Below, one piece after another: positions 1,376 to 18,478 of a stretch of 18,478 nucleotides of DNA. The stretch covers positions 1-18,478 of IMG/VR virus record IMGVR_UViG_2802429220_000018; one strand, given 5' to 3'. The stretch's first letter is position 1, and every line of letters starts with the position of its first letter. A model generated the notes under the pieces. That model did not search any database. It saw nothing but the letters and a program-made list of their open reading frames with translations, and was not told where the DNA came from. Made by a program: the position numbers and the translations under genes. Source of the stretch: a virus. Its lineage: Duplodnaviria; Heunggongvirae; Uroviricota; Caudoviricetes.

Positions 1376-1386
1376 GCGCGCTTTAC

Positions 1387-1506
1387 CCGGCACTGTCAGA
1401 TTTGATCACCAGTATGGTGGCCAGTGGCTATGACTACCGGCGCGACGATGATGCGGGCCTGTGGAGTTCAGCCGATCTGACTTATGTCATTACCTATGAA
1501 ATGTGA
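1387..1506 (+). pseudogene. U: 3' remnant (about 40 codons) of lambda tail terminator gene U; the 5' two-thirds is absent
   Basis: Frame ending at TGA 1504-1506 reads ...[39 protein letters not shown], matching the C-terminus of lambda gpU (131 aa) as I recall it. Upstream in frame there is a stop at 1369-1371 and no lambda-like sequence. The remnant sits immediately before V as in lambda. Confidence 0.6.
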
Positions 1507-1513
1507 GGACGCT

Positions 1514-2254: not shown

Positions 2255-2269
2255 TCCGGAGAGTCAGCG

Positions 2270-3108: not shown

Positions 3109-5662
3109 ACCGGTAGGCGATCTGGTCGTTGATTTAAGTCTGGATGCGGCCAGATTTGACGAGCAGATGGCCAGAGTCAGGCGTCATTTTTCCGGTACGG
3201 AAAGTGATGCGAAAAAAACAGCGGCAGTCGTTGAACAGTCGCTGAGCCGACAGGCGCTGGCTGCACAGAAAGCGGGGATTTCCGTCGGGCAGTATAAAGC
3301 CGCCATGCGTATGCTGCCTGCACAGTTCACCGACGTGGCCACGCAGCTTGCAGGCGGGCAAAGCCCGTGGCTGATCCTGCTGCAACAGGGTGGTCAGGTT
3401 AAGGACTCCTTCGGCGGGATGATCCCCATGTTCCGGGGGCTTGCCGGTGCGATCACCCTGCCGATGGTCGGGGCCACCTCGCTGGCGGTGGCGACCGGTG
3501 CGCTGGCGTATGCCTGGTATCAGGGTAACTCAACCCTGTCCGATTTCAACAAAACGCTGGTCCTTTCCGGTAATCAGGCGGGACTGACGGCAGATCGTAT
3601 GCTGGTCCTGTCCAGAGCCGGGCAGGCTGCAGGGCTGACGTTTAACCAGACCAGCGAGTCACTCAGTGCACTGGTTAAGGCGGGGGTAAGCGGTGAGGCT
3701 CAGATTGCGTCCATCAGCCAGAGTGTGGCGCGTTTCTCCTCTGCATCCGGTGTGGAGGTGGACAAGGTCGCTGAAGCCTTCGGGAAGCTGACCACTGACC
3801 CGACGTCGGGGCTGACGGCGATGGCGCGCCAGTTCCATAACGTGACGGCGGAGCAGATTGCGTATGTTGCTCAGTTGCAGCGTTCCGGCGATGAAGCCGG
3901 GGCATTGCAGGCGGCGAACGAGGCCGCAACGAAAGGGTTTGATGACCAGACCCGACGCTTGAAAGAGAACATGGGCACGCTGGAAACCTGGGCAGACAGG
4001 ACAGCACGGGCATTCAAATCCATGTGGGATGCGGTGCTGGATATTGGTCGTCCTGATACCGCTCAGGAGATGCTGATTAAGGCAGAGGCTGCGTTTAAGA
4101 AAGCGGACGACATCTGGAATCTGCGCAAGGATGATTATTTTGTTAACGATGAAGCGCGGGCGCGTTACTGGGATGATCGTGAAAAGGCCCGTCTTGCGCT
4201 TGAAGCCGCCCGAAAGAAGGCTGAACAGCAGAGTCAACAGGACAAAAATGCGCAGCAGCAGAGCGATACCGAAGCGTCACGGCTGAAATATACCGAAGAG
4301 GCGCAGAAGGCTTACGAACGGCTGCAGACGCCGCTGGAGAAATATACCGCCCGTCAGGAAGAACTGAACAAGGCACTGAAAGACGGGAAAATCCTGCAGG
4401 CAGATTACAACACGCTGATGGCGGCGGCGAAAAAGGATTATGAAGCGACGCTGAAAAAGCCGAAACAGTCCGGCGTGAAGGTGTCTGCGGGCGATCGTCA
4501 GGAAGACAGTGCTCATGCTGCCCTGCTGACGCTTCAGGCAGAACTCCGGACACTGGAGAAGCATGCCGGAGCGAATGAGAAAATCAGCCAGCAGCGCCGG
4601 GATTTGTGGAAGGCAGAAAGTCAGTTCGCGGTACTGGAGGAGGCGGCACAACGTCGCCAGCTGTCCGCACAGGAGAAATCCCTGCTGGCGCATAAAGACG
4701 AGACGCTGGAGTACAAACGCCAGCTGGCTGCACTTGGCGATAAGGTCACGTATCAGGAGCACCTGAATGCGCTGGCGCAGCAGGCGGATAAATTCGCACA
4801 GCAACAACGGGCAAAACGGGCAGCCATTGATGCGAAAAACCGGGGGCTGACTGACCGGCAGGCAGCGCGGGACGCCACGGAACAGCGCCTGAAGGAACAG
4901 TATGGCGATAATCCGCTGGCGCTGAATAGCGTCATGTCAGAGCAGAAAAAGACCTGGGCGGCTGAAGACCAGCTTCGTGGGAGCTGGATGGCAGGCCTCA
5001 GGTCAGGCTGGAGTGAGTGGGAAGAGAGCGCCACGGACAGTATGTCGCAGGTTAAAAGTGCAGCCACGCAGACCTTTGATGGTATTGCACAGAATATGGC
5101 GGCGATGCTGACCGGCAGTGAACAGAACTGGCGCAGCTTCACCCGTTCCGTGCTGTCCATGATGACAGAAATTCTGCTTAAGCAGGCAATGGTGGGGATT
5201 GTCGGGAGTATCGGCAGCGCCATTGGCGGTGCTGCCAGTGGTGGCGCATCAGCGTCAGGCGGTACAGCCATTCAGGCAGCTGCGGCGAAACTCCATTTTG
5301 CGACCGGAGGATTTACGGGAACCGGCGGCAAATATGAGCCAGCGGGGATTGTTCACCGTGGTGAATTTGTCTTCACCAAGGAGGCAACCAGCCGGATTGG
5401 CGTGGGGAATCTTTACCGGCTGATGCGCGGCTATGCCACCGGCGGTTATGTCGGTACACCGGGCAGCATGGCGGACAGTCGGTCGCAGGCGTCCGGGACG
5501 TTTGAGCAGAATAACCATGTGGTGATTAACAACGACGGCACGAACGGTCAGATAGGGCCACAGGCGCTGAAGGCTGTTTATGACGTAGCCCGTAAGGCGG
5601 CAATGGATGTTGTGACCGGGCAGATGCGTGATGGTGGTCTGTTCTCCGGAGGTGGACGATGA
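3101..5662 (+). CDS. H: Tail tape measure protein gpH (853 aa)
   Basis: ATG 3101 overlapping the end of T. MAEPVGDLVVDLSLDAARFDEQMARVRRHF..., length 853 aa, coiled-coil-rich middle and glycine-rich C-terminus, as in lambda H. Confidence 0.95.
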   Translation: MAEPVGDLVVDLSLDAARFDEQMARVRRHFSGTESDAKKTAAVVEQSLSRQALAAQKAGISVGQYKAAMRMLPAQFTDVATQLAGGQSPWLILLQQGGQVKDSFGGMIPMFRGLAGAITLPMVGATSLAVATGALAYAWYQGNSTLSDFNKTLVLSGNQAGLTADRMLVLSRAGQAAGLTFNQTSESLSALVKAGVSGEAQIASISQSVARFSSASGVEVDKVAEAFGKLTTDPTSGLTAMARQFHNVTAEQIAYVAQLQRSGDEAGALQAANEAATKGFDDQTRRLKENMGTLETWADRTARAFKSMWDAVLDIGRPDTAQEMLIKAEAAFKKADDIWNLRKDDYFVNDEARARYWDDREKARLALEAARKKAEQQSQQDKNAQQQSDTEASRLKYTEEAQKAYERLQTPLEKYTARQEELNKALKDGKILQADYNTLMAAAKKDYEATLKKPKQSGVKVSAGDRQEDSAHAALLTLQAELRTLEKHAGANEKISQQRRDLWKAESQFAVLEEAAQRRQLSAQEKSLLAHKDETLEYKRQLAALGDKVTYQEHLNALAQQADKFAQQQRAKRAAIDAKNRGLTDRQAARDATEQRLKEQYGDNPLALNSVMSEQKKTWAAEDQLRGSWMAGLRSGWSEWEESATDSMSQVKSAATQTFDGIAQNMAAMLTGSEQNWRSFTRSVLSMMTEILLKQAMVGIVGSIGSAIGGAASGGASASGGTAIQAAAAKLHFATGGFTGTGGKYEPAGIVHRGEFVFTKEATSRIGVGNLYRLMRGYATGGYVGTPGSMADSRSQASGTFEQNNHVVINNDGTNGQIGPQALKAVYDVARKAAMDVVTGQMRDGGLFSGGGR

Positions 5663-5988
5663 AAACCTTCCGCTGGAAAGTGAAACCCGGTATGGATGTG
5701 GCTTCGGCCCCTTCTGTAAGAAAGGTGCGCTTTGGTGATGGCTATTCCCAGCGAGCGCCTGCCGGGCTGAATGCCAACCTGAAAACGTACAGCGTGACGC
5801 TTTCTGTCCCCCGTGAGGAGGCCACGGTACTGGAGTCGTTTCTGGAAGAGCACGGGGGCTGGAAAGCCTTTCTGTGGACGCCGCCTTATGAGTGGCGGCA
5901 GATAAAGGTGACCTGCGCAAAATGGTCGTCGCGGGTCAGTATGCTGCGTGTTGAGTTCAGCGCAGAGTTTGAACAGGTGGTGAACTGA
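5659..5988 (+). CDS. M: Tail tip assembly protein gpM (109 aa)
   Basis: ATG 5659 overlaps the H stop (ATGA). MKTFRWKVKPGMDVASAPSVRKVRFGDGYSQRA... matches lambda M. Confidence 0.93.
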   Translation: MKTFRWKVKPGMDVASAPSVRKVRFGDGYSQRAPAGLNANLKTYSVTLSVPREEATVLESFLEEHGGWKAFLWTPPYEWRQIKVTCAKWSSRVSMLRVEFSAEFEQVVN

Positions 5989-6686
5989 TGCAGGATATCC
6001 GGCAGGAAACACTGAATGAATGCACCCGTGCGGAGCAGTCGGCCAGCGTGGTGCTCTGGGAAATCGACCTGACAGAGGTCGGTGGAGAACGTTATTTTTT
6101 CTGTAATGAGCAGAACGAAAAAGGTGAGCCGGTCACCTGGCAGGGGCGACAGTATCAGCCGTATCCCATTCAGGGGAGTGGTTTTGAACTGAATGGCAAA
6201 GGCACCAGTACGCGCCCCACGCTGACGGTTTCTAACCTGTACGGTATGGTCACCGGGATGGCGGAAGATCTGCAGAGTCTGGTCGGCGGAACGGTGGTCC
6301 GGCGTAAGGTTTACGCCCGTTTTCTGGATGCGGTGAACTTCGTCAACGGAAACAGTGACGCCGATCCGGAGCAGGAGGTGATCAGCCGTTGGCGCATTGA
6401 GCAGTGCAGCGAACTGAGCGCGGTGAGTGCCTCTTTTGTACTGTCCACGCCGACGGAAACGGACGGCGCTGTTTTTCCGGGACGTATCATGCTGGCCAAC
6501 ACCTGCACCTGGACCTATCGCGGCGATGAGTGCGGTTATCACGGTCCGGCGGTCGCGGATGAATATGACCAGCCAACGTCCGATATCACGAAGGATAAAT
6601 GCAGCAAATGCCTGAGCGGTTGTAAGTTCCGCAATAACGTCGGCAACTTTGGCGGCTTCCTTTCCATTAACAAACTTTCGCAGTAA
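5988..6686 (+). CDS. L: Tail tip protein gpL (232 aa)
   Basis: ATG 5988 overlaps the M stop (TGATG). MQDIRQETLNECTRAEQSASVVLWEIDLTEVGGERYFFCNE... matches lambda L, including the C-terminal Cys cluster. Confidence 0.93.
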   Translation: MQDIRQETLNECTRAEQSASVVLWEIDLTEVGGERYFFCNEQNEKGEPVTWQGRQYQPYPIQGSGFELNGKGTSTRPTLTVSNLYGMVTGMAEDLQSLVGGTVVRRKVYARFLDAVNFVNGNSDADPEQEVISRWRIEQCSELSAVSASFVLSTPTETDGAVFPGRIMLANTCTWTYRGDECGYHGPAVADEYDQPTSDITKDKCSKCLSGCKFRNNVGNFGGFLSINKLSQ

Positions 6687-6691
6687 ATCCC

Positions 6692-7435
6692 ATGACACAG
6701 GCAGAATCAGCGATTCTGGCGCACGCCCGGCGATGTGCGCCAGCGGAGTCGTGCGGCTTCGTGGTAAGCACGCCGGAGGGGGAAAGATATTTCCCCTGCG
6801 TGAATATCTCCGGTGAGCCGGAGGCGTATTTCCGTATGTCGCCGGAAGACTGGCTGCAGGCAGAAATGCAGGGTGAGATTGTGGCGCTGGTCCACAGCCA
6901 CCCCGGTGGTCTGCCCTGGCTGAGTGAGGCCGACCGGCGGCTGCAGGTGCAGAGTGATTTGCCGTGGTGGCTGGTCTGCCGGGGGACGATTCATAAGTTC
7001 CGCTGTGTGCCGCATCTCACCGGGCGGCGCTTTGAGCACGGGGTGACGGACTGTTACACGCTGTTCCGGGATGCTTATCATCTGGCGGGGATTGAGATGC
7101 CGGATTTTCATCGCGAGGATGACTGGTGGCGTCACGGTCAGAATCTCTATCTGGATAATCTGGAGGCCACAGGGCTGTATCAGGTGCCGTTGTCATCAGC
7201 ACAACCGGGCGATGTGCTGCTGTGCTGTTTTGGTTCATCGGTGCCGAATCATGCCGCCATTTACTGTGGTGATGGCGAGCTGCTGCACCATATTCCTGAA
7301 CAACTGAGCAAACGAGAGAGGTATACCGACAAATGGCAGCGACGCACACACTCCCTCTGGCGTCACCGGGCATGGCACGCATCTGCCTTTACGGGGATTT
7401 GCAACGATTTGGCCGCCGCATCGATCTTCGTGTGA
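6692..7435 (+). CDS. K: Tail tip assembly protein gpK (247 aa; JAB/MPN plus NlpC/P60-like)
   Basis: ATG 6692. MTQAESAILAHARRCAPAESCGFVVSTPEGERYF...HSHPGG... matches lambda K; the 3' end overlaps the start of I in another frame, as in lambda. Confidence 0.9.
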   Translation: MTQAESAILAHARRCAPAESCGFVVSTPEGERYFPCVNISGEPEAYFRMSPEDWLQAEMQGEIVALVHSHPGGLPWLSEADRRLQVQSDLPWWLVCRGTIHKFRCVPHLTGRRFEHGVTDCYTLFRDAYHLAGIEMPDFHREDDWWRHGQNLYLDNLEATGLYQVPLSSAQPGDVLLCCFGSSVPNHAAIYCGDGELLHHIPEQLSKRERYTDKWQRRTHSLWRHRAWHASAFTGICNDLAAASIFV

Positions 7436-8004
7436 AAACGGGGGCTGAAGCTATCCGGGCGCTGGCCACACAGCTCCCGGCGTTTCGTCAGAAACTGAGC
7501 GACGGCTGGTATCAGGTACGGATTGCCGGGCGGGATGTCAGCACGTCCGGATTAACGGCGCAGTTACATGAGACTCTGCCTGATGGCGCTGTGATTCATA
7601 TTGTTCCCAGAGTCGCCGGGGCCAAGTCAGGTGGTGTATTCCAGATTGTCCTGGGAGCTGCCGCCATTGCCGGATCATTCTTTACTGCCGGAGCCACCCT
7701 TGCAGCATGGGGGGCAGCCATTGGGGCCGGTGGTATGACCGGCATCCTGTTTTCTCTCGGTGCCAGTATGGTGCTCGGTGGTGTGGCGCAGATGCTGGCA
7801 CCGAAAGCCAGAACTCCCCGTACACAGACAACGGATAACGGCAAACAGAACACCTATTTTTCCTCACTGGATAACATGGTTGCTCAGGGCAATGTTTTGC
7901 CTGTTCTGTACGGTGAAATGCGTGTGGGGTCGCGGGTGGTTTCTCAGGAGATCAGCACGGCAGACGAAGGGGACGGTGGTCAGGTTGTGGTGATTGGTCG
8001 CTGA
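7333..8004 (+). CDS. I: Tail tip assembly protein gpI (223 aa)
   Basis: ATG 7333 inside the K 3' end. MAATHTLPLASPGMARICLYGDLQRFGRRIDLRVKTGAEAIRALATQ... matches lambda I; ubiquitin-like N-terminus and Gly/Ala-rich hydrophobic segment. Confidence 0.9.
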   Translation: MAATHTLPLASPGMARICLYGDLQRFGRRIDLRVKTGAEAIRALATQLPAFRQKLSDGWYQVRIAGRDVSTSGLTAQLHETLPDGAVIHIVPRVAGAKSGGVFQIVLGAAAIAGSFFTAGATLAAWGAAIGAGGMTGILFSLGASMVLGGVAQMLAPKARTPRTQTTDNGKQNTYFSSLDNMVAQGNVLPVLYGEMRVGSRVVSQEISTADEGDGGQVVVIGR

Positions 8005-8064
8005 TGCAAAATGTTTTATGTGAAACCGCCTCCGGGCGGTTTTGTCGTTTATGGAGCATGACGA

Positions 8065-11000
8065 ATGGGTAAAGGCAGCAGTAAGGGGCATACCCCGCGC
8101 GAAGCGAAGGATAACCTGAAATCCACGCAGCTGCTGAGTGTGATCGATGCCATCAGCGAAGGGCCGATTGAAGGTCCGGTGGATGGATTAAAAAGCGTGC
8201 TGCTGAACAGTACACCGGTGCTGGACAGTGAGGGGAATACCAACATCTCCGGTGTCACGGTGGTGTTCCGGGCAGGTGAGCAGGAGCAGACACCGCCGGA
8301 GGGATTTGAATCCTCCGGTTCCGAGACGGTGCTGGGTACGGAAGTGAAATACGACACGCCGATCACCCGGACCATCACGTCTGCAAACATCGACCGTCTG
8401 CGCTTTACCTTCGGTGTGCGGGCACTGGTGGAAACCACCTCAAAGGGTGACCGGAATCCGTCGGAAGTCCGCCTGCTGGTTCAGATACAACGTAACGGTG
8501 GCTGGGTGACAGAAAAAGACATCACCATTAAGGGCAAAACCACGTCGCAGTATCTGGCCTCGGTGGTGGTGGATAACCTGCCGCCGCGACCGTTCAATAT
8601 CCGGATGCGCAGGATGACACCGGACAGCACCACAGACCAGCTGCAGAACAAAACGCTCTGGTCGTCATACACCGAAATCATCGATGTGAAACAGTGCTAC
8701 CCGAACACGGCACTGGTCGGCGTGCAGGTGGATTCGGAGCAGTTCGGCAGCCAGCAGGTGAGCCGTAATTATCATCTTCGCGGGCGCATTCTGCAGGTGC
8801 CGTCGAACTATAACCCGCAGACGCGGCAATACAGCGGTATCTGGGACGGGACGTTTAAACCGGCATACAGCAACAACATGGCCTGGTGTCTGTGGGATAT
8901 GCTGACCCATCCGCGCTACGGCATGGGGAAGCGTCTCGGTGCGGCGGATGTGGACAAATGGGCGCTGTATGTCATCGGCCAGAATTGCGACCAGTCGGTG
9001 CCGGATGGCTTTGGTGGCACGGAGCCGCGCATCACCTGTAACGCTTACCTGACCACACAGCGCAAGGCGTGGGATGTGCTCAGTGATTTCTGCTCGGCGA
9101 TGCGCTGTATGCCGGTATGGAACGGGCAGACGCTGACGTTCGTGCAGGACCGACAGTCGGATAAGGTGTGGACCTATAACCGCAGTAATGTGGTGATGCC
9201 GGATGATGGCGCGCCGTTCCGCTACAGCTTCAGCGCCCTGAAGGACCGCCATAATGCCGTTGAGGTGAACTGGATTGACCCGAACAACGGCTGGGAGACG
9301 GCGACAGAGCTTGTTGAAGATACGCAGGCCATTGCCCGTTACGGTCGTAATGTCACGAAGATGGATGCCTTTGGTTGTACCAGTCGGGGGCAGGCACACC
9401 GAGCCGGGCTGTGGCTGATTAAAACGGAACTGCTGGAAACGCAGACCGTGGATTTCAGCGTGGGCGCAGAAGGGCTTCGCCATGTGCCGGGCGATGTTAT
9501 TGAAATCTGCGATGATGACTATGCCGGTATCAGCATCGGTGGTCGCGTGCTGGCGGTGAACAGCCAGACCCGGACGCTGACGCTCGACCGTGAAATCACG
9601 CTGCCATCCTCCGGCACCACGCTGATAAGCCTGGTTGACGGTGAGGGTAATCCGGTCAGCGTGGAGGTCCAGTCCGTCACCGACGGCGTGAAGGTGAAAG
9701 TGAGCCGTGTTCCTGACGGCGTTGCTGAATACAGCGTGTGGGGGCTGAAGTTGCCGACGTTGCGCCAGCGCCTGTTCCGCTGTGTGAGTATCCGTGAGAA
9801 CGACGACGGCACGTATGCCATCACTGCCGTGCAGCATGTGCCGGAAAAAGAGGCCATCGTGGATAACGGGGCGCACTTTGACGGCGACCAGAGCGGCACG
9901 GTGAATGGTGTCACGCCGCCAGCGGTGCAGCACCTGACCGCAGAAGTCACCGCAGACAGCGGGGAATACCAGGTGCTGGCGCGCTGGGACACGCCGAAGG
10001 TGGTGAAGGGCGTGAGCTTTATGCTTCGCCTGACCGTGGCAGCGGATGACGGCAGTGAGCGGCTGGTCAGCACGGCCCGGACGACGGAAACCACATACCG
10101 CTTCACGCAACTGGCTTTGGGAAACTACAGGCTGACAGTCCGGGCGGCAAATGCCTGGGGGCAGCAGGGCGATCCGGCGTCGGTATCGTTCCGGATTGCC
10201 GCACCGGCAGCACCGTCGCGGATTGAGCTGACGCCGGGCTATTTTCAGATAACCGCAACGCCGCATCTTGCCGTTTATGATCCGACGGTACAGTTTGAGT
10301 TCTGGTTCTCGGAAAAGCGGATTACCGATATCAGGCAGGTTGAAACCACAGCCCGCTATCTTGGCACGGGGCTGTACTGGATAGCCGCCAGTATCAATAT
10401 CAAACCGGGCCATGATTATTATTTTTACGTTCGCAGTGTGAACACCGTTGGCAAATCGGCATTTGTGGAGGCCGTCGGTCGGGCGAGCGATGATGCGGAA
10501 GGTTACCTGGATTTTTTCAAAGGCAAGATAACCGAATCCCATCTCGGCAAGGAGCTGCTGGAAAAAGTCGAGCTCACGGAGGATAACGCCAGCAGACTGG
10601 AGGAGTTTTCGAAAGAGTGGAAGGACGCCAACGATAAGTGGAATGCCATGTGGGCTGTCAAAATTGAGCAGACCAAAGACGGCAAACATTATGTCGCGGG
10701 TATTGGCCTCAGCATGGAGGACACGGAGGAAGGCAAACTGAGCCAGTTTCTGGTTGCCGCTAACCGTATCGCATTTATTGACCCGGCAAACGGGAATGAA
10801 ACGCCGATGTTTGTGGCGCAGGGCAATCAGATATTCATGAACGACGTGTTCCTGAAGCGCCTGACGGCCCCCACCATTACCAGCGGTGGCAGTCCTCCGG
10901 TATTTTCCCTGACATCAGACGGAAAGCTGACCGCTAAAAATGCGGATATCAGTGGCAGTGTGAATGCGAACGCCGGGACGCTCAACAATGTCACGGTAAA

Positions 11001-11478
11001 TGAAGACTGTACGATTAAGGGCATGCTGGAGGCGACTCAGGTCAGAGGTGACTTCGTTAAAGCTGTATCCAAATCATTCCCGAAACAGGCTGGTACGTGG
11101 GGTAACACGGAAACACCAAACGGGACGGTTACAGTCACCATCAGTGATGATCATAACTTTGACCGTCAAATCATTATTCCGCCCATTATCTTTAACGGAA
11201 TAGCGTATAGCGATCCGGGAAGTGGTAATAACCCGGGAGGTACAAGATACACGGGTTATGGTTTTGAAGTTCGCAAAAACGGTGTATTAATCGCATCCAG
11301 AGAAACTAAAGGGGCCATTCCCGGTAGCTACAGTGCGGTTATTGATATGCCGAGTGGCAGGGGAAGCGTCACTCTGGAGTTTAAGGTTTTCCATAAAGGC
11401 AATCAGTGGGCAGGTAATATCACCGACTGTACGGTGATTGTGACCAAAAAAGCCGCTTCCGGCATCAGTATTCGTTGA
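8065..11478 (+). CDS. J: Central tail fibre / tip attachment protein gpJ (1137 aa)
   Basis: ATG 8065 with GGAG upstream. [42 protein letters not shown]... is the lambda J N-terminus. Length 1137 aa against about 1132 for lambda J as I recall. Confidence 0.95.
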
Positions 11479-11499
11479 AATTGTTATAACCCATATAAG

Positions 11500-11524
11500 G
11501 GCACCAGAAATGGTGCCTTTTTTA
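11500..11524 (+). terminator. Rho-independent terminator after J
   Basis: ggcacca-gaaa-tggtgcc stem-loop (11500-11517) followed by TTTTTTATT. Confidence 0.75.
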
Positions 11525-11547
11525 TTGCAGAAAAGCGAGAGGTAATT

Positions 11548-12147
11548 ATGCGTAAACTTTATGCCGCCATTTTTTCCGCAGCCATCTGTCTGGCCGTATC
11601 CGGTGCGCCTGCATGGGCATCTGAACATCAGTCCACGCTGAGCGCGGGGTATCTTCATGCCTCGACGAACGTTCCCGGCAGCGATGATCTGAACGGGATT
11701 AACGTGAAATACCGTTATGAGTTTACGGATACGCTGGGGATGGTGACGTCATTCAGCTATGCAGGAGACAAGAATCGCCAGCTTACCCGTTACAGCGATA
11801 CCCGCTGGCATGAAGATTCCGTGCGTAACCGCTGGTTCAGCGTGATGGCGGGGCCGTCTGTGCGCGTGAATGAATGGTTCAGCGCGTATGCGATGGCGGG
11901 TATGGCTTACAGCCGTGTTTCGACGTTCTCCGGGGATTATCTCCGCGTAACTGACAACAAGGGGAAAACGCACGATGTGCTGACCGGAAGTGATGGCGGT
12001 CGCCACAGCAACACGTCTCTGGCGTGGGGGGCTGGCGTGCAGTTTAACCCGACCGAATCCGTGGCCATTGACCTTGCTTATGAAGGTTCCGGCAGTGGCG
12101 ACTGGCGCACTGACGGTTTCATCGTGGGTGTCGGTTATAAATTCTGA
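11548..12147 (+). CDS. lom: Lom / Ail family outer-membrane beta-barrel protein (199 aa, signal peptide)
   Basis: ATG 11548 with GAGAGG about 6 nt upstream. N-terminal signal peptide [24 protein letters not shown]; C-terminus ...[26 protein letters not shown] is the Ail/Lom/PagC signature ending in an aromatic residue; same position as lambda lom. Confidence 0.9.
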
Positions 12148-12173
12148 TTAGCCAGGTAACACAGTGTTATGAC

Positions 12174-12200
12174 AGCCCGTCGGTTCAGGCGGGCTTTTTT
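12174..12200 (+). terminator. Rho-independent terminator after lom
   Basis: agcccg-loop-cgggct stem (12174-12195) followed by TTTTTT (12195-12200). Confidence 0.7.
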
Positions 12201-12211
12201 GTGGAGTGGAT

Positions 12212-14587
12212 ATGGCAGCAGTAAAAATCTCAGGTGTGCTGAAAGATGGTGCGGGAAAACCAATACAGAACTGCACTATTCAACTGAAGGCAAAGCGTAA
12301 CAGCACCACGGTACTGGTGAACACGGTGGCCTCTGAAAATCCGGATGAAGCCGGGCGTTACAGCATGGACGTTGAGTATGGCCAGTACAGCGTTATCCTG
12401 CTGGTTGAAGGTTTTCCGCCTTCACATGCCGGAACCATTACCGTCTATGAAGGTTCCAGACCAGGTACGCTGAATGATTTTCTCGGTGCCATGACGGAAG
12501 ATGATGTCATGCCGGAGGCATTGCGTCGTTTTGAGGCAATGGTGGAAGAAGCGGCACACAACGCTGAAGCCGCCTCTCAGAGCGCAGCGGCGGCAAAGAA
12601 ATCCGAAGCTGCTGCGGCATCATCGAAGAACGCGGCGAAAAGCTCAGAAACGAATGCAGCTAACAGCGCACAGGCGGCAGCGGCCTCACAGACTGCATCG
12701 GCAAACTCCGCGACAGCAGCCCAAAAATCAGAAACCAACGCGAAAAATAGCGAAACAGCCGCAAAGACGAGCGAAACCAACGCAAAGTCCAGCCAGACGT
12801 CAGCGAAAACAAGCGAAACGAATGCCAAAACCAGTGAAACTGCGGCGAAAAGCAGTCAGGCTGCAGCAGCCGAAAGCGAGAGTGCTGCAGCCGGTTCTGC
12901 GACTTCAGCAGCTGGATCAGCAACTGCTGCGGCTAACAGCCAGAAAGCAGCGAAGACGAGCGAAACTAACGCAAAGTCCAGCCAGACGGCAGCGAAGACC
13001 AGCGAAACGAATGCCAAAGCCAGCGAAACTGCGGCGAAAAACAGTCAGGATGCAGCGGCCCAAAGCGAGAGTGCCGCAGCTGGTTCTGCAAGTGCGGCGG
13101 CTTCTTCTGCCACTGCATCAGCCAACAGTCAAAAAGCTGCAAAAACCAGTGAAACCAACGCAAAGGCGAGCGAGACTGCGGCGGCTAACTCGGCGAAAGC
13201 ATCCGCTGCAAGCCAGACGGCTGCAAAAGCAAGTGAAGACGCAGCCAGAGAGTATGCAAGCCAGGCTGCGGAGCCGTATAAACAAGTTTTGCAGCCGCTT
13301 CCCGATGTGTGGATACCGTTTAACGATTCACTGGATATGATTACGGGCTTTTCGCCGTCATATAAAAAGATTGTTATTGGTGATGATGAAATAACGATGC
13401 CTGGCGATAAGGTTGTAAAGTTTAAACGCGCATCGAAAGCAACCTATATTAATAAATCTGGTGTGCTGACAGAGGCTGCCATTGACGAGCCACGATTTGA
13501 ACGTGATGGCCTGCTTATTGAGGGGCAAAGAACAAACTACATGCTCAATTCGGAAAACCCTGCCAGTTGGGGGCGATCGTCAAATATGGATGTTCCCGAA
13601 ACCGGGAAGGATAGTTTTGGTTTTACCTATGGAAAGTTTGTCTGTAACGATTCTCTGATTGGGCAAACCTCAGCCATTAATATGGCATCAATTGCTGCAA
13701 CAAAGTCAGTTGATGTCTCAGGCGATAATAAATACGTGACAACCTCATGTCGTTTTAAAACAGAACTGCAGGTAAGGTTGCGTATCCGGTTTGATAAATA
13801 TGACGGTAGCGCAACAACTTTTCTTGGTGATGCGTATATTGATACACAAACGCTTGAAATTAATATGACAGGCGGCGCTGCCTCAAGGATTACAGCGAGA
13901 GTCAGAAAGGACGAAGCTACCGGATGGATTTTTGCAGAGGCAACAATTCAGGCAATTGATGGGGAGTTAAAAATAGGTTCTCAGATACAGTATTCTCCTA
14001 AGCAGGGCGGGGCAACCGTATCTGGTGACTATATTTATCTGGCCACCCCACAAGTAGAAAATGGGCCTTGTGTATCATCTTTTATTATATCAGGAACGAC
14101 GGCGGCGACCCGCGCAAGCGATATAGTTACAGTTCCCATTAAGAATAATCTTTATAATCTTCCTTTTACGGTTCTTTGTGAGGTACATAAGAACTGGTAT
14201 AAAACGCCAAATGCAGCGCCGCGTGTTTTTGACACCGGCGGTCATCAAACCGGAGCGGCAATTATTCTTGGATTCGGTTCTTCAGCAGATTACGACGGAT
14301 TTCCTTATTGCGATATTGGAGGAGCTAACAGACGGGTAAACGAAAACGCATTGCTTGAAAAAATGGTTATGGGGATGCGTGTAAAGTCAGATCAGTCTAC
14401 GTGCTCAGTAAGTAACGGGCGTATATCCAGCCAAACAAAAACCACATGGTCCTATATTCAGAACACCGCAATTATCCGTATTGGAGGCCAAACTACAGCC
14501 GGGTTACGTCATTTATTTGGTCATGTCAGGAATTTCAGAATATGGCACAAGGCATTGACTGATGCTCAGGTGGGGGAGTCAATCTAA
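12212..14587 (+). CDS. stf: Side tail fibre protein (Stf-like, 791 aa from ATG 12212): lambda-like N-terminus, Ala/Ser/Thr/Lys-rich repeat shaft, non-lambda C-terminal domain
   Basis: ATG 12212 with GGAG about 6 nt upstream (the track start 12206 is a GTG two codons earlier). The N-terminus MAAVKISGVLKDGAGKPIQNCTIQLKAKRNSTT... matches lambda Stf as I recall it. The central region is built of KTSETNAKSSQTAAK-type repeats; the C-terminal approx 440 aa is not like lambda Stf, but I did not compare the C-terminus carefully. Confidence 0.85.
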   Translation: MAAVKISGVLKDGAGKPIQNCTIQLKAKRNSTTVLVNTVASENPDEAGRYSMDVEYGQYSVILLVEGFPPSHAGTITVYEGSRPGTLNDFLGAMTEDDVMPEALRRFEAMVEEAAHNAEAASQSAAAAKKSEAAAASSKNAAKSSETNAANSAQAAAASQTASANSATAAQKSETNAKNSETAAKTSETNAKSSQTSAKTSETNAKTSETAAKSSQAAAAESESAAAGSATSAAGSATAAANSQKAAKTSETNAKSSQTAAKTSETNAKASETAAKNSQDAAAQSESAAAGSASAAASSATASANSQKAAKTSETNAKASETAAANSAKASAASQTAAKASEDAAREYASQAAEPYKQVLQPLPDVWIPFNDSLDMITGFSPSYKKIVIGDDEITMPGDKVVKFKRASKATYINKSGVLTEAAIDEPRFERDGLLIEGQRTNYMLNSENPASWGRSSNMDVPETGKDSFGFTYGKFVCNDSLIGQTSAINMASIAATKSVDVSGDNKYVTTSCRFKTELQVRLRIRFDKYDGSATTFLGDAYIDTQTLEINMTGGAASRITARVRKDEATGWIFAEATIQAIDGELKIGSQIQYSPKQGGATVSGDYIYLATPQVENGPCVSSFIISGTTAATRASDIVTVPIKNNLYNLPFTVLCEVHKNWYKTPNAAPRVFDTGGHQTGAAIILGFGSSADYDGFPYCDIGGANRRVNENALLEKMVMGMRVKSDQSTCSVSNGRISSQTKTTWSYIQNTAIIRIGGQTTAGLRHLFGHVRNFRIWHKALTDAQVGESI
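12764..13250 (+). repeat. In-frame tandem repeat of a 189-bp unit (about 2.5 copies) inside stf, with more degenerate 21-bp sub-repeats extending upstream to about 12590
   Basis: Unit starts aagacgagcgaaaccaacgcaaagtccagccagacg at 12764 and 12953, with a diverged third copy at 13142; this gives two near-identical 63-aa protein blocks. Confidence 0.8.
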
Positions 14588-14868
14588 TGAAAGATTTAAC
14601 ACTCAAATTTGCCGACAGGGCCGACTTTTCGGCCTTTATGGAGAGTACTGGCTATTATGATGACGAGTCGATGCAGGATGATATTCTTATTGACGTGATA
14701 GGTAACGTGTACAAAGAAACCGGAGAACTGAATGAAGATGGCGAACCGGTATGTGTTAAGGAAGACGGATATTTTGTAAACGTGCGCATCATTAATGATG
14801 TGAAAACACCATCAATATTCGATGAATACGTGGTTGCTGTTGAGCATCAACTTCGTGGCTGGATGTGA
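14587..14868 (+). CDS. Hypothetical small acidic protein (93 aa), translationally coupled to stf; candidate fibre chaperone or adaptor
   Basis: ATG 14587 overlaps the stf stop (TAATG). D/E-rich, no hydrophobic segment. It occupies the position where lambda carries tfa but does not resemble lambda Tfa. Confidence 0.55.
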   Translation: MKDLTLKFADRADFSAFMESTGYYDDESMQDDILIDVIGNVYKETGELNEDGEPVCVKEDGYFVNVRIINDVKTPSIFDEYVVAVEHQLRGWM

Positions 14869-14877
14869 GGAAGAATA

Positions 14878-15918
14878 ATGGCTACATCGACAGTAATTCC
14901 TGATGACATCAAAACGCTAAAATCCGATGTTAGTAAACTAAAAAACGATCAAGGAAGCTACGCAACAAAATCATATGTAGACAGCAAAGATGAAACCGTT
15001 GGTGACTGGTCTGCTTCATGGTATCAGCAGGTATTGCCAACTAGCGGAGCTATATTTGGGAGAAAACTCCGCTCAACTCACAGGACGGCAGGTGTTGAGG
15101 ATGCGTATTGCGAACTATACCTCAAAAAATGGATAGACAGTCCAGGTAACGCAATGGCGCGCCTTAACCTGAACGATAACGGGACAAACATTTGCTGGGA
15201 CTTTACCAACCTTTATGGCGGTACGATGATTTTTCCCGGTGACAGCGGATACCTCAAAATGGGTGACTGCCTTATGTCATACAGCAAGCGTGGAAGTAAC
15301 GCGCTTATTAAATTTGATTACACCGACACATTACAGATCAAATATGCTAATCATGGGTCAACCATGACATTAAACACACAGGGAACCGCTCACGCTGGCG
15401 TAACAACTAGACTATGGGGTAATTCTAGCCGTCCGGTTGTTTATGAAGTTGGCGTAGATGAGGCTCTGTATATGTTCTACGCACAGAAAACTACCAGCAA
15501 TACCTACGAATTAACGGTTAACGGCGCGTGCAATGCAAGTGCATTTAATCAAGGCTCCGACCGGGATCTGAAAGACAATATTCAGGTGATCGATAATGCA
15601 ATCGACCGCATTCGTAAAATGAACGGCTATACATACACGCTTAAAGAAAACGGTATGCCTTACGCTGGTGTTATTGCACAAGAAACCCTGGAAGCCATCC
15701 CCGAAGCCGTAGGGTCTATGATGAAATATCCAGACGGCGGGAGTGGATTAGATGGAGAAGAAGGTGAACGGTATTACACTGTAGATTATTCTGGTGTTAC
15801 TGGCTTGCTTGTTCAGGTAGCCAGAGAGTCAGACGACAGGATAACAGCACTGGAAGAAGAAAACGCAGAATTAAGACAAAGATTATCTGCAATTGAGGCG
15901 GCGCTTGCGTCTAAATAA
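14878..15918 (+). CDS. Tail fibre / tailspike-like protein (346 aa) with C-terminal intramolecular chaperone autoproteolytic domain (Peptidase_S74 type, about residues 227-346)
   Basis: ATG 14878 with GAGGAAG upstream. The C-terminal motif SDRDLKDNIQVIDNAIDRIRKMNGYTYTLKE....GVIAQETLEAIPEAV fits the conserved SDxxxKxNI ... GxxYxxK ... GVIAQEV..P signature of the endosialidase / T5 L-shaped-fibre C-terminal chaperone, followed by a coiled-coil-like tail. Confidence 0.7.
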   Translation: MATSTVIPDDIKTLKSDVSKLKNDQGSYATKSYVDSKDETVGDWSASWYQQVLPTSGAIFGRKLRSTHRTAGVEDAYCELYLKKWIDSPGNAMARLNLNDNGTNICWDFTNLYGGTMIFPGDSGYLKMGDCLMSYSKRGSNALIKFDYTDTLQIKYANHGSTMTLNTQGTAHAGVTTRLWGNSSRPVVYEVGVDEALYMFYAQKTTSNTYELTVNGACNASAFNQGSDRDLKDNIQVIDNAIDRIRKMNGYTYTLKENGMPYAGVIAQETLEAIPEAVGSMMKYPDGGSGLDGEEGERYYTVDYSGVTGLLVQVARESDDRITALEEENAELRQRLSAIEAALASK

Positions 15919-15922
15919 TATT

Positions 15923-15946
15923 AAGGGGCCGAGCGCCCCGTTTTAT
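15923..15946 (+). terminator. Weak candidate terminator hairpin after the fibre-like gene
   Basis: ggggc-cgagc-gcccc stem-loop (15925-15939) followed by GTTTTATT; short stem and interrupted T tract. Confidence 0.35.
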
Positions 15947-15960
15947 TGGGTAGGATGAAA

Positions 15961-16254
15961 ATGGATATAACACCTTTCCTTCATGCTCTTTGTGCTGTGG
16001 CTGCGCAGCTACTGATTGGTCTTTTTACCGGGAACTGGGCTTACGGAGCGATAGCCGGTTGTACGTTCTTCATTGCGCGTGAACACACCCAGGCAGAATA
16101 TCGCTGGATTGAAATGTTCGGGCATGGCAAGCGTATGAATATGCCGTGGTGGGGCGGTTTTGATCCACGCGCGTGGGATGTGGCAAGCATGATGGATTTT
16201 GCTGTGCCGGTGGTGGCGTGTCTGCTGGTCTGGCGGTTAGTTAATCGTGGGTGA
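15961..16254 (+). CDS. Hypothetical small membrane protein (97 aa from ATG 15961; two predicted hydrophobic segments)
   Basis: ATG 15961 with AGGA 5 nt upstream (the track's 15946 start is a TTG; ATG 15955 is also possible). Hydrophobic stretches FLHALCAVAAQLLIGLFTG...AIAGCTFFIA and MMDFAVPVVACLLVWRLV. No family recognised. Confidence 0.5.
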   Translation: MDITPFLHALCAVAAQLLIGLFTGNWAYGAIAGCTFFIAREHTQAEYRWIEMFGHGKRMNMPWWGGFDPRAWDVASMMDFAVPVVACLLVWRLVNRG

Positions 16255-16700
16255 AAAAGCATGTTTAGTGTACTTTCCCGAAACTGATAGTAAGTGGCGA
16301 GATTAATTACCTGCTTCAGACTGAATGATTTTTTGCAAGCGCCACAGAAGTAATAGGGGTGAGTGAAAAAATATTATATATTAATGAATTGCGTTATTGC
16401 ATCATCAGCTCAAAATGATGAATAACTAGAATTCCTGTCATAGCATTAATGGCTGAATTGGTGGGATGATATATCAGATAGAGTATCAATAAAAGCTGGA
16501 ATGCATGTGGATTCAAATGGTTTTTGGCTAGATGATACTTATATCATATATTATATGAAGTATTTTAATGTTGCTCTGGAGGGAAATAGTGAGAGATGCA
16601 CGGCGAAGCACGTCTTGAACTAAATATACACAAGTAAATCATGCTTTCGCCGCTGTATTAGAGCTTTGTTTCAGATTTGTTAATCGCCAGGTATTACCCC

Positions 16701-16722
16701 ACCAAAAAAATGATTTTTTGGT
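16701..16722. terminator. Perfect 9-bp A/T-rich hairpin (accaaaaaa-atga-ttttttggt) 14 bp past the KAP gene stop; candidate bidirectional terminator
   Basis: 16701-16709 is the exact reverse complement of 16714-16722. The U-rich arm could serve as the 3' tract; weak because of the AT-only stem. Confidence 0.3.
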
Positions 16723-16735
16723 AAAGTGGATGTTC

Positions 16736-18478
16736 TCATAATTTGTTAATGGCAATTTTAACTGTTCTGTTTAGATCGTATATGGCTCCAAATTTAAAGC
16801 TTTCTTTATAGGAAAGGCAAAAAATATCAAGTTTTTGACTAAGATAAATAAGTTTGTTTTTTTCATTAGTGGCGAATTGTTTTATGTTGCTGATTTGATA
16901 GTTGCTACGCAAGAAAGAACTAAATTGCTCAATATCATTAACTGCCCAATTCTTTAAAACGCATTTTGTTACAAATGATACACCTAGTACTTCAAGCGGC
17001 TTATAATTTCCGAATGGATCTAAAGTGGTTAATTGGTTAGCATTGAATGATGCCCAGCCATTCAATTCTAATTGCAACTTAATAGTGTTGAGTTCACGCA
17101 TTTTGATCGTGCTTTCATAACGGTAAAATGAAATTGAGTACAGCAATTTGCTATCTTCAAAACCACTATTTAAGCTATTTTTTCTATCAAGTGAGTATAG
17201 CTCAAAGCATTCTGCAACTTCATTGTCAGTGAATCCGTTCAGAATCGAAGTGACAAACTTTAGAGTTATAATTGGTGATTTTGGTAGGTATTTATGTGTG
17301 GTTAAATACTCATAATTCTGAAACGCTTTTATCCATTCATAGAAATTACAGTCAATCTTACGGCAAATTAAGTCGACAAGTGTATTTGAAAGTTCCTTTT
17401 CATTTATCTCATGTAATTCTGGACGTGCTGATATTGCAATTTCTCTCATAGTAAGCCGTTTTGCTTCATAAAACAAAACATCCAATATGTCATTTAATGA
17501 AGCTTGTCCGCTATAATACCTTTTAATCTCAGGTTTTATTTTGTAATTATTCAATGCTAACCATAGCACTCTCTCACTATCACTTGATTTCTCGGTGTTT
17601 AATAAAAAAGTTGGATCTTTGTCCTTGAGAAGATCCTCAAGAGAGTGATTATGCAAAAATAATAAAATGAAGAAAGAGCATATTGAGTTTAAAAGAATTG
17701 TTGATGGTATTCGCCAAGAAAGATGAGGATATGATTTAACGTATTCATATAATGGCGTAACTGTGTCCAAAATACGCATCAAAATACGGATGTTAACTAT
17801 GTTGTTATTTTTTACTATATCCTCAAAGAGAATTTTATCTTCCTGTGGGAATTGGGAAAGCTTTCCATTTATTATATCTATATCCAATATTTCCTCTGGA
17901 TGCGGATTATAATGAAGTGTTTCTGCAATGAGTTTTTCCTTGTGTTCTATTTTTAAACCAGACTCAGTTGATGTATTGGTAATAATAATAAAGTCTAAAT
18001 TTGAGTTCATCTCGGACATATAAAGAGAATGGCAATATGTCAAAATTTCACTAACTAATGATTTTTCGGATATTCTCTCTATATCATCCAATATAAAAAT
18101 ACCATCCAGTTTTGATAAAATGTTTTCTCTAACACTTGCACCAATAGAATTAAACATGCTGTTAATAATATTGGCACTTGCAGGTGAGCCGCTGGCAATG
18201 CTACCTATCCCTGATAGACTTTCGAGCCCGGATTTAAATGTTTGTATATCTTGCAGGTAGTAACAATCTATAATTTTAGCTTTGAAATCTGATAAGGATT
18301 TAATACCTAGTAAAGAAATATAATAGAAAATGTTTTTATCATAGTACTTGGGGAATTTTTTTCTGATAAAGTGAGTCTTTCCTGTGCCCCAGCTCCCATC
18401 AAGCAAAATCAGACCATCTCTTTTTTGTGAAAGTAGATGTATTATTTTTATAATAAGATTGCTGTTAGAGTATTTCAT
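16736..18478 (-). CDS. KAP-family P-loop NTPase (580 aa); AT-rich, likely horizontally acquired cargo; start codon at the last window base
   Basis: Minus-strand ORF with ATG at 18476-18478 and TGA at 16736-16738. Walker A in the KAP form GSWGTGKT (residues 28-35, LLDGSWGTGKTHF); Walker B-like IFILDDIER (compare the KAP DDLDR motif). The DNA is strongly AT-rich compared with the tail genes. Confidence 0.7.
   Translation of the reverse strand: MKYSNSNLIIKIIHLLSQKRDGLILLDGSWGTGKTHFIRKKFPKYYDKNIFYYISLLGIKSLSDFKAKIIDCYYLQDIQTFKSGLESLSGIGSIASGSPASANIINSMFNSIGASVRENILSKLDGIFILDDIERISEKSLVSEILTYCHSLYMSEMNSNLDFIIITNTSTESGLKIEHKEKLIAETLHYNPHPEEILDIDIINGKLSQFPQEDKILFEDIVKNNNIVNIRILMRILDTVTPLYEYVKSYPHLSWRIPSTILLNSICSFFILLFLHNHSLEDLLKDKDPTFLLNTEKSSDSERVLWLALNNYKIKPEIKRYYSGQASLNDILDVLFYEAKRLTMREIAISARPELHEINEKELSNTLVDLICRKIDCNFYEWIKAFQNYEYLTTHKYLPKSPIITLKFVTSILNGFTDNEVAECFELYSLDRKNSLNSGFEDSKLLYSISFYRYESTIKMRELNTIKLQLELNGWASFNANQLTTLDPFGNYKPLEVLGVSFVTKCVLKNWAVNDIEQFSSFLRSNYQISNIKQFATNEKNKLIYLSQKLDIFCLSYKESFKFGAIYDLNRTVKIAINKL

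Follow-up and report, generated by a model that had tools for sequence, protein, structure and literature searches.

A stand-alone KAP-family P-loop NTPase in the cargo of a lambdoid Escherichia coli prophage, a plausible single-gene candidate for anti-phage defence

The KAP NTPases PifA and QatA, together with a class described in 2026 in which a KAP domain is joined to a region of unknown function, have been tied to defence by experiment (PMC13552941; PMC13001434), and the view of an earlier note on the DNA considered here, that KAP NTPases are poorly characterised, has thus been overtaken. PifA is encoded by the F plasmid, where pifC lies immediately upstream of pifA in one operon, and is responsible for the abortive exclusion of phage T7, which T7 proteins trigger. 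The 2026 class consists of EF_KAP and three proteins from gut metagenomes (PLoS Biol 2026, PMC13552941), for which the Walker B motif and the C-terminal region are both needed, the C-terminal regions themselves being diverse (PMC13552941). Transmembrane (TM) helices are typical of KAP NTPases but are absent from PifA (PMC13001434).

QatA is the KAP-type NTPase of the anti-phage system QatABCD. Tmn (Gao 2020), now placed in the YobI family of transmembrane P-loop NTPases, is a one-gene defence found on mobile elements of E. coli. It depends on its NTPase: a sensor arm recognises the phage protein RIIB, and the response is powered by ATP turnover. Finally, PADLOC lists PDC-S49, a single-gene candidate that is untested and is defined by its embedding in BREX, DISARM, RM or Hma loci.

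Here we describe a KAP gene that closes an 18,478-nucleotide stretch of phage DNA (the window). The gene is cargo (a 'moron') carried in Enterobacteriaceae by temperate phages and by mobile elements of other kinds, and its product is a plausible single-gene candidate for anti-phage defence. It would add a member to a kind of system that has already been recognised recently, not a new type of system.

The KAP protein and its domains

The encoded protein is identical to RefSeq WP_000877736.1, annotated as 'P-loop NTPase fold protein'. Its ATG start is at the last base of the window, and in a genome copy that is 100% identical a single TTG codon is all that could be added at the 5' end of the frame before a stop codon is reached, so that the gene is essentially complete as it stands (Table 1). 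Translation bears out the minus-strand ORF and the GSWGTGKT and DDIER motifs of the earlier note, and its assignment to the KAP family is supported by an HMM search: Pfam KAP_NTPase (PF07693) scores 29 bits against a gathering cutoff of 20 (E 8e-7), in a partial match that joins aa 7-169 to positions 6-192 of 293 in the profile, and the same profile is matched by all 26 members of the family.

Table 1. Features of the KAP gene and its surroundings, in window coordinates
Feature	Position	Strand	Basis or remark
102-aa hydrophobic ORF, left edge of the end-module	15946..16254	+	annotated hypothetical protein
AT-rich non-coding spacer, GC 0.35, between tail-fibre-region ORF and KAP gene	16255..16735	.	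composition
Hairpin, 14-bp stem, -15 kcal/mol, 9 nt past the stop codon	16696..16727	-	RNAfold, sequence
KAP-family P-loop NTPase CDS, 580 aa, complete	16736..18478	-	TGA stop at 16736-16738; ORF and translation
All-alpha C-terminal domain, aa 285-580, matching no known family; candidate sensor or protein-binding domain	16739..17626	-	
Walker B strand and KAP signature IFILDDIER, aa 127-135	18074..18100	-	translation
Gly/Ser/Ala-rich insert, aa 77-112, in the Walker A/Walker B interval	18143..18250	-	low-confidence model, conserved
Walker A / P-loop GSWGTGKT, aa 28-35	18374..18397	-	translation

The Walker A residues G28, W30, G31, G33, K34 and T35 are invariant across the 26 family members, down to ~18% identity, and the motif has the KAP-type form GxWGxGK[ST], a block shared with PifA. 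The KAP Walker B signature is hhhhDD(L/I)(D/E)R. Its residues D131, D132, E134 and R135 are likewise invariant in the 26 members, and IFILDDIER aligns with IVVMDDLDR of PifA. The protein fits an ASCE-type (AAA+/STAND-like) NTPase fold; matches to NACHT or AAA_16 are marginal and confined to one to three of the 26 members.

The insert sits between the Walker motifs, where related NTPases hold transmembrane helices. It is modelled at pLDDT <50 over aa 77-109, is conserved at 0.70, near the 0.72-0.75 of the core, and has a Kyte-Doolittle value of ~0.85, which is too low for a transmembrane hairpin. The sole strongly hydrophobic stretch of the protein (aa 257-275, KD 2.09) is placed by the model, with high confidence, in a helix of the globular helical region, and hydropathy together with the pLDDT of the model gave no TM helices in or near the NTPase domain. 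This does not disqualify the protein from KAP membership, because PifA also lacks them.

The C-terminal half gave no match to an effector domain, TM segment or enzyme fold, and no secretion signal or TM segment was found in the protein. This helical half is rare, occurring in 55 of 1.84 billion representative proteins (clusters), always in the same architecture of KAP domain and tail. As a helical domain it resembles protein-interaction scaffolds.

Comparison with described systems

PDC-S49 is the best profile match for all 26 family members, with E 7e-16 for the window protein. Both groups comprise proteins of ~580-625 aa with a KAP-type NTPase followed by a helical region, but the window protein aligns with positions 27-258 of 624 only, and the lineage as a whole with the first 250-300 of ~620, whereas for the true members P0037 and P0034 the match extends over almost the whole length. 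Beyond the NTPase, P0034 is collinear with the C-terminal domain (motifs W-x3-DI-x2-F...FLR-x-NY and QKLD...G), a similarity that is weak (E 2.5e-4, probability 43%), and P0037 shows none. The surroundings also differ, as the KAP lineage occupies cargo slots of prophages and other mobile elements, and none of ~10 distinct contexts places a copy inside or beside a BREX, DISARM, type I RM or Hma system. Judged by these profile matches, the family may be a divergent branch of the candidate PDC-S49. The 'defence component' of the earlier note can be retained as far as candidate status is concerned, which the PADLOC matches and the hotspot context described below support, but not as a component of a multi-partner system.

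With PifA the window protein shares the KAP family, the GxWGxGKT and hhhhDD(I/L)(E/D)R motifs, the lack of TM helices, carriage by an E. coli mobile element and an extended non-catalytic C-terminal portion in a single polypeptide. However, alignment is confined to the two Walker blocks (BLASTP E 0.03; 29 columns in hhalign), the Pfam KAP score is 148 bits for PifA against 29 for the window protein, and PifA has 741 aa with an unrelated C-terminus. The gene also lacks a regulator partner equivalent to pifC, and its product is not an orthologue of PifA.

The 2026 class is close by description, and the window protein has its architecture, namely an N-terminal KAP NTPase followed by ~300 aa without known domain or structural match, in a single gene (PMC13552941). 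It differs in that EF_KAP was modelled with two TM helices (PMC13552941) and none are predicted here, and in that Firmicutes and gut metagenomes are the sources of the described proteins, whose genes adjoin small serine recombinases, the marker used to discover them. No small serine recombinase was found in the window or at the thrS end of the prophage; among the contexts studied, only that of a distant homologue (L012, 39% identity) has a resolvase, of 185 aa and three genes away.

Tmn/YobI and QatA can be ruled out. For Tmn there is no match in PADLOC at E<=1, Pfam YobI-ATPase is found in one of the 26 members (E 0.0098), and there is no TM hairpin within the P-loop domain. For QatA there is no PADLOC match, and QatB, QatC and QatD (QueC-like, TatD-like) neighbours are missing from every context. 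STAND/Avs NTPases differ in turn, as the KAP protein has no N-terminal effector and carries a compact candidate sensor of ~300 aa in place of a TPR or LRR array. In the literature no paper names WP_000877736 or PDC-S49; no phenotype has been reported for the protein or its close relatives, which counts against a defence reading.

Prophage location, composition and mobility

Mapping of the att sites in the 100%-identical genome places the KAP gene last before attR in a lambdoid E. coli prophage inserted ~30 bp upstream of thrS, in agreement with the accessory position, like that of the lambda b region, given in the earlier note. Upstream of the gene lie its own promoter-like element, a decayed SRAP pseudogene remnant, attR and thrS. 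The promoter-like element, which is conserved and is predicted ~50 nt upstream of the gene, is indeed outside the window, as had been supposed; the partner genes also supposed to lie there are not, as no intact one follows the window end in that genome and the gene stands alone. Extending the window disposes, too, of an unrelated housekeeping operon, since thrS adjoins but attR intervenes and there is no shared operon. In related lambdoid phages the att-proximal slot holds sitABCD, or a methyltransferase, a hydrolase and ompT, and so the att-side position supports the status of cargo but not, by itself, the defence role that had been read from it.

The gene is transcribed against the phage late operon. 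The hairpin past its stop codon is likely to be a terminator, in an ancestral arrangement shared with a convergent umuC; we infer this role, because a consensus terminator scan did not call the hairpin. Homology with other lambdoid phages breaks at ~16260, phage matches ending at 16258-16259, and the similarity of the spacer to SRAP-KAP-umuC loci stops at 16641-16669, where a faint trace of the last 17 umuC codons can be made out at 16641-16691 on the plus strand (tblastn, UmuC aa 406-422; weak, E 0.038). No Rfam family was found in the spacer and no Pfam family for the 102-aa ORF, the 3' end of which is common to deposited lambdoid phages. None of the deposited phage genomes encodes the KAP protein. 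From window position 15964 onward to thrS, a 4.2-kb end-module is 98.5% identical between a lambda-like and a P22-like prophage (blastn, L001, of NZ_AP045802.1, against L024), which defines a thrS-targeting att/int end-module that carries the KAP gene between these two kinds of prophage in clinical and environmental E. coli. Strains EC931 and 2452 are examples of natural lysogens.

The gene has a GC content of 0.316 (GC3 0.291) against 0.58 and 0.56 for the tail genes gpH and gpJ and 0.45-0.49 for the tail-fibre genes, and the AT-rich block runs from ~16260 to ~70 bp beyond the window end. The contrast reported in the earlier note is thus real, but it is a poor indicator of recent acquisition. 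Homologues in all hosts, including those across the range of 36% to 98% identity, have GC 0.31-0.36, and because every homologue in every host is equally AT-rich, low GC alone does not date the acquisition; on composition, AT-richness is a trait of this KAP family, and recent acquisition is not proven by it. An AT-rich gene of this kind could also be silenced by H-NS, which would count against its expression in lysogens.

Relatives have the gene in a variable slot flanked by conserved SRAP and umuC genes, and the order SRAP - KAP - umuC - umuD is seen again, at KAP identities of 36-80%, in Citrobacter, Enterobacter and other Enterobacteriaceae. Elsewhere the slot holds DRT-UG17 with SLATT, or PD-T4-3; it is empty in 6 loci and filled by unrelated genes in 25, most of the cargoes belonging to no known defence family and some being metabolic genes or an autotransporter. 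PADLOC gave no convincing match on the neighbours of KAP homologues. With its known defences and many AT-rich unknowns, this slot in mobile elements of Enterobacteriaceae can be mined for candidates. The KAP gene moves as a cassette of ~2 kb without a conserved partner. Its mobile contexts include lambda-like and P22-like prophages, an AlpA/antirestriction island beside a colicin-immunity pair, an AcaB/TraU conjugative element and a plasmid, and it is also kept as a lone chromosomal islet where the surrounding element has decayed.

Proposed role and alternatives

We lean, by a modest degree, towards a reading in which the protein is a stand-alone, soluble, TM-less, PifA-like KAP sensor-NTPase that would protect lysogens against other phages or competing mobile elements. 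In this proposal the protein would be expressed from the prophage, its fast-evolving, all-helical C-terminal domain would recognise a phage-made protein, and recognition would switch the N-terminal NTPase, probably via oligomerisation as in related AAA+/STAND-type NTPases, so that the activated NTPase blocks infection. The likeliest outputs may be PifA-like abortive infection, through collapse of the membrane or of nucleotide pools, or NTP-dependent sequestration of an essential phage protein, which are favoured because there is no recognisable effector domain. If protective, the gene would be a compact, E. coli-native, single-gene addition to the small set of KAP-NTPase defences, and a protein without TM helices or a recognisable effector domain would offer a clean system in which to study KAP sensing and output, a question that is also posed by PifA. 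Should it prove not to protect, it simply joins the uncharacterised cargo genes of prophages.

A bolder form of the sensor-NTPase proposal, to which we give only a small chance, is that the C-terminal domain is a new phage-sensing module and that this TM-less KAP protein executes immunity without a separate effector. The output could then come from runaway NTP hydrolysis, or from an assembly whose contact with the membrane is made by the conserved Gly/Ser/Ala-rich insert (aa 77-112). If true, the protein would be a soluble equivalent of the Tmn/PifA kind of defence by 'metabolic or membrane collapse', and a tractable E. coli model of KAP NTPase signalling.

It is unlikely that the gene serves instead in competition between, or maintenance of, mobile elements, where the same sensor-NTPase logic would answer to non-phage triggers in plasmid or ICE exclusion or in an addiction-like stabilisation. 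All of its contexts are mobile elements, of different kinds, and the archetype PifA is plasmid-borne, with phage restriction perhaps not its primary function (PMC13552941). However, retention as a lone islet after decay of the element points to a benefit to the host and not to the element only, there is no antitoxin-like partner, and bona fide anti-phage systems occupy the shared slot.

Rather unlikely, too, is a gene for lysogenic conversion or fitness outside any conflict between elements, for example a regulator of membrane or signalling complexes, as was first proposed for KAP NTPases generally. Related lambdoid phages do carry fitness or virulence cargo near att (sitABCD, ompT, lom), and the scaffold-like C-terminal domain would suit such a role. 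Nevertheless, the sparse and patchy distribution of this one, with a full-length ORF in 71 of 5,426 E. coli genomes and 55 clusters worldwide, and its very diverse alleles are more in keeping with conflict genes than with housekeeping or virulence functions; the protein, as noted above, has neither a secretion signal nor a TM segment.

The recurrent order with SRAP and umuDC, and the remnants of SRAP and umuC that flank the E. coli copy, could suggest that the protein works with these DNA-damage-tolerance genes (SRAP being YedK-like), for instance by modulating translesion synthesis or the processing of DNA-protein crosslinks at prophage induction. We regard this as very unlikely. Between loci whose KAP genes share 38% identity the flanks of the slot share 90-95%, and GC differs sharply, at 0.32 for KAP against 0.49-0.55; on these grounds the gene has been exchanged as a cassette and has not co-evolved with its neighbours. 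The slot, moreover, can be empty or hold unrelated genes, and LexA boxes precede umuD alone, with none in the vicinity of KAP. The KAP gene and umuC run towards each other, and in E. coli and Cronobacter the KAP gene has stayed intact in the absence of SRAP and umuDC.

A silent or decaying passenger, functionless in the present prophage, is highly improbable: although the adjoining SRAP and umuC are decayed, AT-rich DNA is often silenced in E. coli and the closest pairwise comparison gives dN/dS 0.33 (on only 23 substitutions), all 71 genomes retain the full-length ORF (>=99% identity), which is carried by two distinct kinds of phage backbone, lambda-like and P22-like, the catalytic residues are invariant, the promoter-like element is conserved, and dN/dS of ~0.12-0.14 at informative distances shows, at the level of codon substitutions, an intact ORF selectively maintained under purifying selection.

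The KAP gene and its place beside thrS

The KAP gene, which encodes a 580-amino-acid KAP-family P-loop NTPase, runs on the minus strand as 580 codons without interruption, and its translation contains both a Walker A motif and a Walker B/KAP signature (see table). In NZ_AP045802.1, which carries a 100% identical copy, the frame extends upstream by at most one TTG codon before a stop, and the gene is therefore complete in the window. In RefSeq the protein is WP_000877736.1, labelled solely as 'P-loop NTPase fold protein'. The GC content of the gene is 0.316 (GC3 0.291), compared with 0.58 for the tape-measure gene, 0.56 for gpJ and 0.45–0.49 for the tail-fibre genes, and the AT-rich block begins at about 16260 and continues for about 70 bp beyond the window. 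This confirms the observation in the earlier note of an intact, AT-rich KAP NTPase frame; its use of AT-richness as a mark of recent acquisition went too far, as homologues have a GC content of 0.31–0.36 in every host, so that low GC is a stable property of the family and gives no date for its arrival.

The window covers the tail half of a lambda-like prophage, with genes V, G/T, H, M, L, K, I, J and lom and those for the tail fibres, and in NZ_AP045802.1 the gene after the KAP gene is host thrS. Aligning both prophage ends (loci L001 and L002) with the empty K-12 site placed the crossover within TCTTTGTATGTGATCTTTCGTGT, which precedes the thrS ATG by about 30 bp. This makes the KAP gene the final gene of the prophage, with about 700 bp separating it from the attR core, and puts it where lambda has its b region, just as the earlier note had placed it, although taking this att-adjacent position as a pointer to defence was an over-reading. 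About 180 bp of the region upstream of thrS are supplied by the phage as a diverged copy, and consequently thrS in lysogens is preceded by phage promoter/leader DNA and not by its native sequence, which could alter regulation of this essential threonyl-tRNA synthetase gene. Near both att arms there is a tandem motif, TTGTGTACCAAATTGTGTACCAATTT, one copy immediately before the integrase gene, the second in the P arm beside the thrS-like segment; both are candidates for arm-type sites bound by the integrase. Outside the window, this prophage has emrE, iss and lom, together with a split pair that is possibly a disrupted BstA-type abortive-infection gene.

Partner genes had been expected beyond the window, but the 740 bp between the KAP start codon and thrS contain no credible ORF, only the remnant of a SRAP gene, a relic of an ancestral SRAP–KAP–umuCD arrangement. 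A promoter-like element, TTGAGA-N17-TAAGAT, lies about 50 nt upstream of the KAP ATG and is kept in six lineages, one of them with otherwise unrelated upstream DNA, while a hairpin (14-bp stem, -15 kcal/mol) follows the stop codon and transcription opposes the late operon. Taken together, these features make the KAP gene look like an autonomous cargo gene, as predicted from sequence.

Features of the window and of the prophage ends
Feature	Location	Strand	Remarks
Slippery heptamer GGGAAAG	window 2668–2674	+	overlap of gpG ORF (2270–2692) and gpT ORF (2674–3108)
Antisense ORF, 674 aa	window 8665–10689	-	wholly within gpJ gene
Hydrophobic ORF, 102 aa	window 15946–16254	+	end of tail-fibre region; no Pfam family
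KAP gene	window 18478 (ATG) to 16736 (TGA)	-	580 codons
Walker A	aa 28–35		GSWGTGKT
Gly/Ser/Ala-rich insert	window 18143–18250 (aa 77–112)	-	between Walker A and Walker B
Walker B/KAP signature	aa 127–135		IFILDDIER
Decayed SRAP (YedK-like) pseudogene	L001 ~22365–22710		87–430 bp past window end; aa 88–205; several stops and a frameshift
Copy of thrS upstream region	L001 22820–23000; L002 7700–7877		phage-supplied
TTGTGTACCAAATTGTGTACCAATTT tandem motif	L001 22889–22916; L002 8000–8028		near both att arms
emrE, iss, lom; split pair	L002 18324–22000 and 28370–28663		pair annotated 'P22AR C-terminal domain' and 'BstA C-terminal domain' protein
Common end module	window 15964 to thrS; L024 4280–8515		L024, locus of P22-like prophage copy

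The KAP protein and its relation to known systems

For every family member the best PADLOC match is PDC-S49, a candidate single-gene phage-defence system and one of 145 candidate PDC systems whose prediction rests on their embedding in BREX, DISARM, RM or Hma loci. The KAP lineage covers only the first 250–300 positions of the PDC-S49 models, whereas genuine PDC-S49 proteins match end to end. A profile of its C-terminal region gave a weak, collinear alignment to one PDC-S49 member (E 2.5e-4) and none to another, and we read the lineage as a probable divergent branch of PDC-S49. PADLOC gave no match to Tmn or QatA, and only the Walker blocks are common with PifA.

A 2026 study demonstrated anti-phage protection by four KAP NTPases whose C-terminal regions are unrelated and of unknown function; protection by EF_KAP was non-abortive and depended on Walker B as well as on the C-terminal region (PMC13552941). 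When PifA aborts T7 infection, the membrane is depolarised and nucleotides leak out. Tmn, now assigned to the YobI family, detects T2 RIIB and links ATP turnover to the export of Mg2+ (PMC13001434). We found no mention of the KAP protein in the literature; its gene is a candidate addition to these recently recognised single-gene KAP-NTPase defences and to the PDC-S49 candidate lineage.

The insert between the Walker motifs is predicted at very low confidence, yet its conservation (0.70) is on a par with that of the catalytic core (0.72–0.75); it might act as a flexible lid, serve in oligomerisation or interact with the membrane. Since it is too weakly hydrophobic for a membrane span, and since the sole strongly hydrophobic stretch (aa 257–275) is modelled as a high-confidence helix inside the helical region, the protein is probably soluble, like PifA, which has been described as a KAP member that lacks TM helices (PMC13001434).

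Distribution, mobility and the SRAP|umuC slot

An intact KAP gene is present in 71 of 5,426 complete E. coli genomes and is absent from deposited phage genomes, both by DNA search and by tblastn. A 98% identical copy also adjoins thrS in a P22-like prophage (tailspike, Ant, Arc, Mnt). This podovirus-type prophage and the lambda-like, siphovirus-type one have 4.2 kb in common at 98.5% identity (102-aa ORF, spacer, KAP gene, SRAP remnant, P arm and att) and differ leftward of it, which indicates that phages of different types exchanged the att-proximal module recently. The 3' end of the 102-aa ORF matches deposited lambdoid phages, and DNA overlapping this ORF and the adjacent spacer occurs in about 1,770 E. 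coli genomes.

More distant homologues are found in an rstA/rstB islet with a truncated SRAP gene (73% identity), at a Citrobacter lambdoid prophage end and on an Enterobacter plasmid (both 70%), alone between housekeeping genes in Cronobacter (60%), close to terminase and lysis genes (58%), beside a resolvase (39%), in an AcaB/TraU conjugative element (31%) and in an AlpA/antirestriction island adjoining a colicin-immunity pair (30%). No neighbour is constant across the contexts examined.

Five lineages have the order SRAP, KAP, then umuC and umuD in the opposite direction. Between two such loci SRAP, UmuC and UmuD are 90%, 95% and 91% identical and KAP only 38%, with a KAP GC content of 0.32 against 0.49–0.55 in the flanks. 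Among 80 loci with the same SRAP gene, taken from species-representative Enterobacteriaceae genomes (L028–L107, about 7600–13700 each), umuC lies downstream of SRAP in 34, none of which holds a KAP gene. In six of these the slot is empty, with a gap of 1–2 bp, while the widest gap measures 6.1 kb; the ORFs in the 25 occupied slots fall into 63 unrelated clusters, most of them AT-rich. When 20 cargo proteins were run through PADLOC, one slot (L100) had a complete DRT-UG17 reverse transcriptase (E 2e-156) with its SLATT partner (5e-56) and PD-T4-3 (1e-135), a second (L055) had a Lamassu/Gabija/PARIS-like ABC ATPase (4e-20) beside a gene with a receiver-like N-terminus, and a third gave a weak PDC-M36A match; the remaining 14 proteins had no match. 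Further slot cargoes are oxidoreductase-like proteins and an autotransporter. This makes the slot a hotspot for cargo of mixed kinds, genuine defence systems among them, and KAP genes are one type of cassette exchanged there. Beside the E. coli copy there survive a remnant of the SRAP 3' end and a faint trace of the umuC 3' end (E 0.038), which suggests that the gene came from a slot of this kind before entering the thrS att module. Because most of the cargoes belong to no known family, the slot might be mined for new defence genes.

Proposed function and further features of the window

The KAP gene is an autonomous NTPase gene, intact and under constraint, whose product has a helical domain specific to its lineage; many kinds of mobile element carry it, and it sits in slots also carrying defence systems. 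We lean towards the view that the KAP gene protects the lysogen, and the motifs, att mapping, PDC-S49 matches and a slot with defence systems bear out in outline the earlier proposal of a KAP NTPase carried as prophage cargo and a defence candidate. The gene would be expressed in the lysogen, its C-terminal domain would bind a phage-encoded trigger, and nucleotide-dependent switching or oligomerisation of the KAP core would then arrest infection. As there is no effector domain, the likeliest outputs would be that nucleotide pools or membrane function collapse in the manner of PifA or Tmn, or else that a phage protein is sequestered directly in an NTP-dependent way.

Of the other explanations, a gene for competition between, or maintenance of, mobile elements is unlikely. 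A role in lysogenic conversion outside conflict is a little less likely again. It is improbable that the gene works with SRAP/umuDC; LexA boxes are present only in front of umuD. A silent relic is very improbable: dN/dS is 0.116–0.138 (Nei–Gojobori, pairs with dS of about 1–1.5) and below 0.2 in both halves of the gene, with replacements commoner in the C-terminal half (dN 0.19–0.25 vs 0.12). The KAP gene is of interest chiefly as a simple, testable E. coli model.

Elsewhere, the window matches a reference prophage at 97.3% (1386–10995) and 99.0% (11459–18478), with positions 1–1385 unmatched and a short divergent patch at 10996–11458, which makes the window prophage a mosaic whose head-tail joining region differs from that of the reference. 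The long antisense ORF within gpJ is most likely no gene but a consequence of the GC-richness and codon bias of gpJ, and the slippery heptamer agrees with the -1 programmed frameshift that is conserved in lambdoid tail assembly chaperones.
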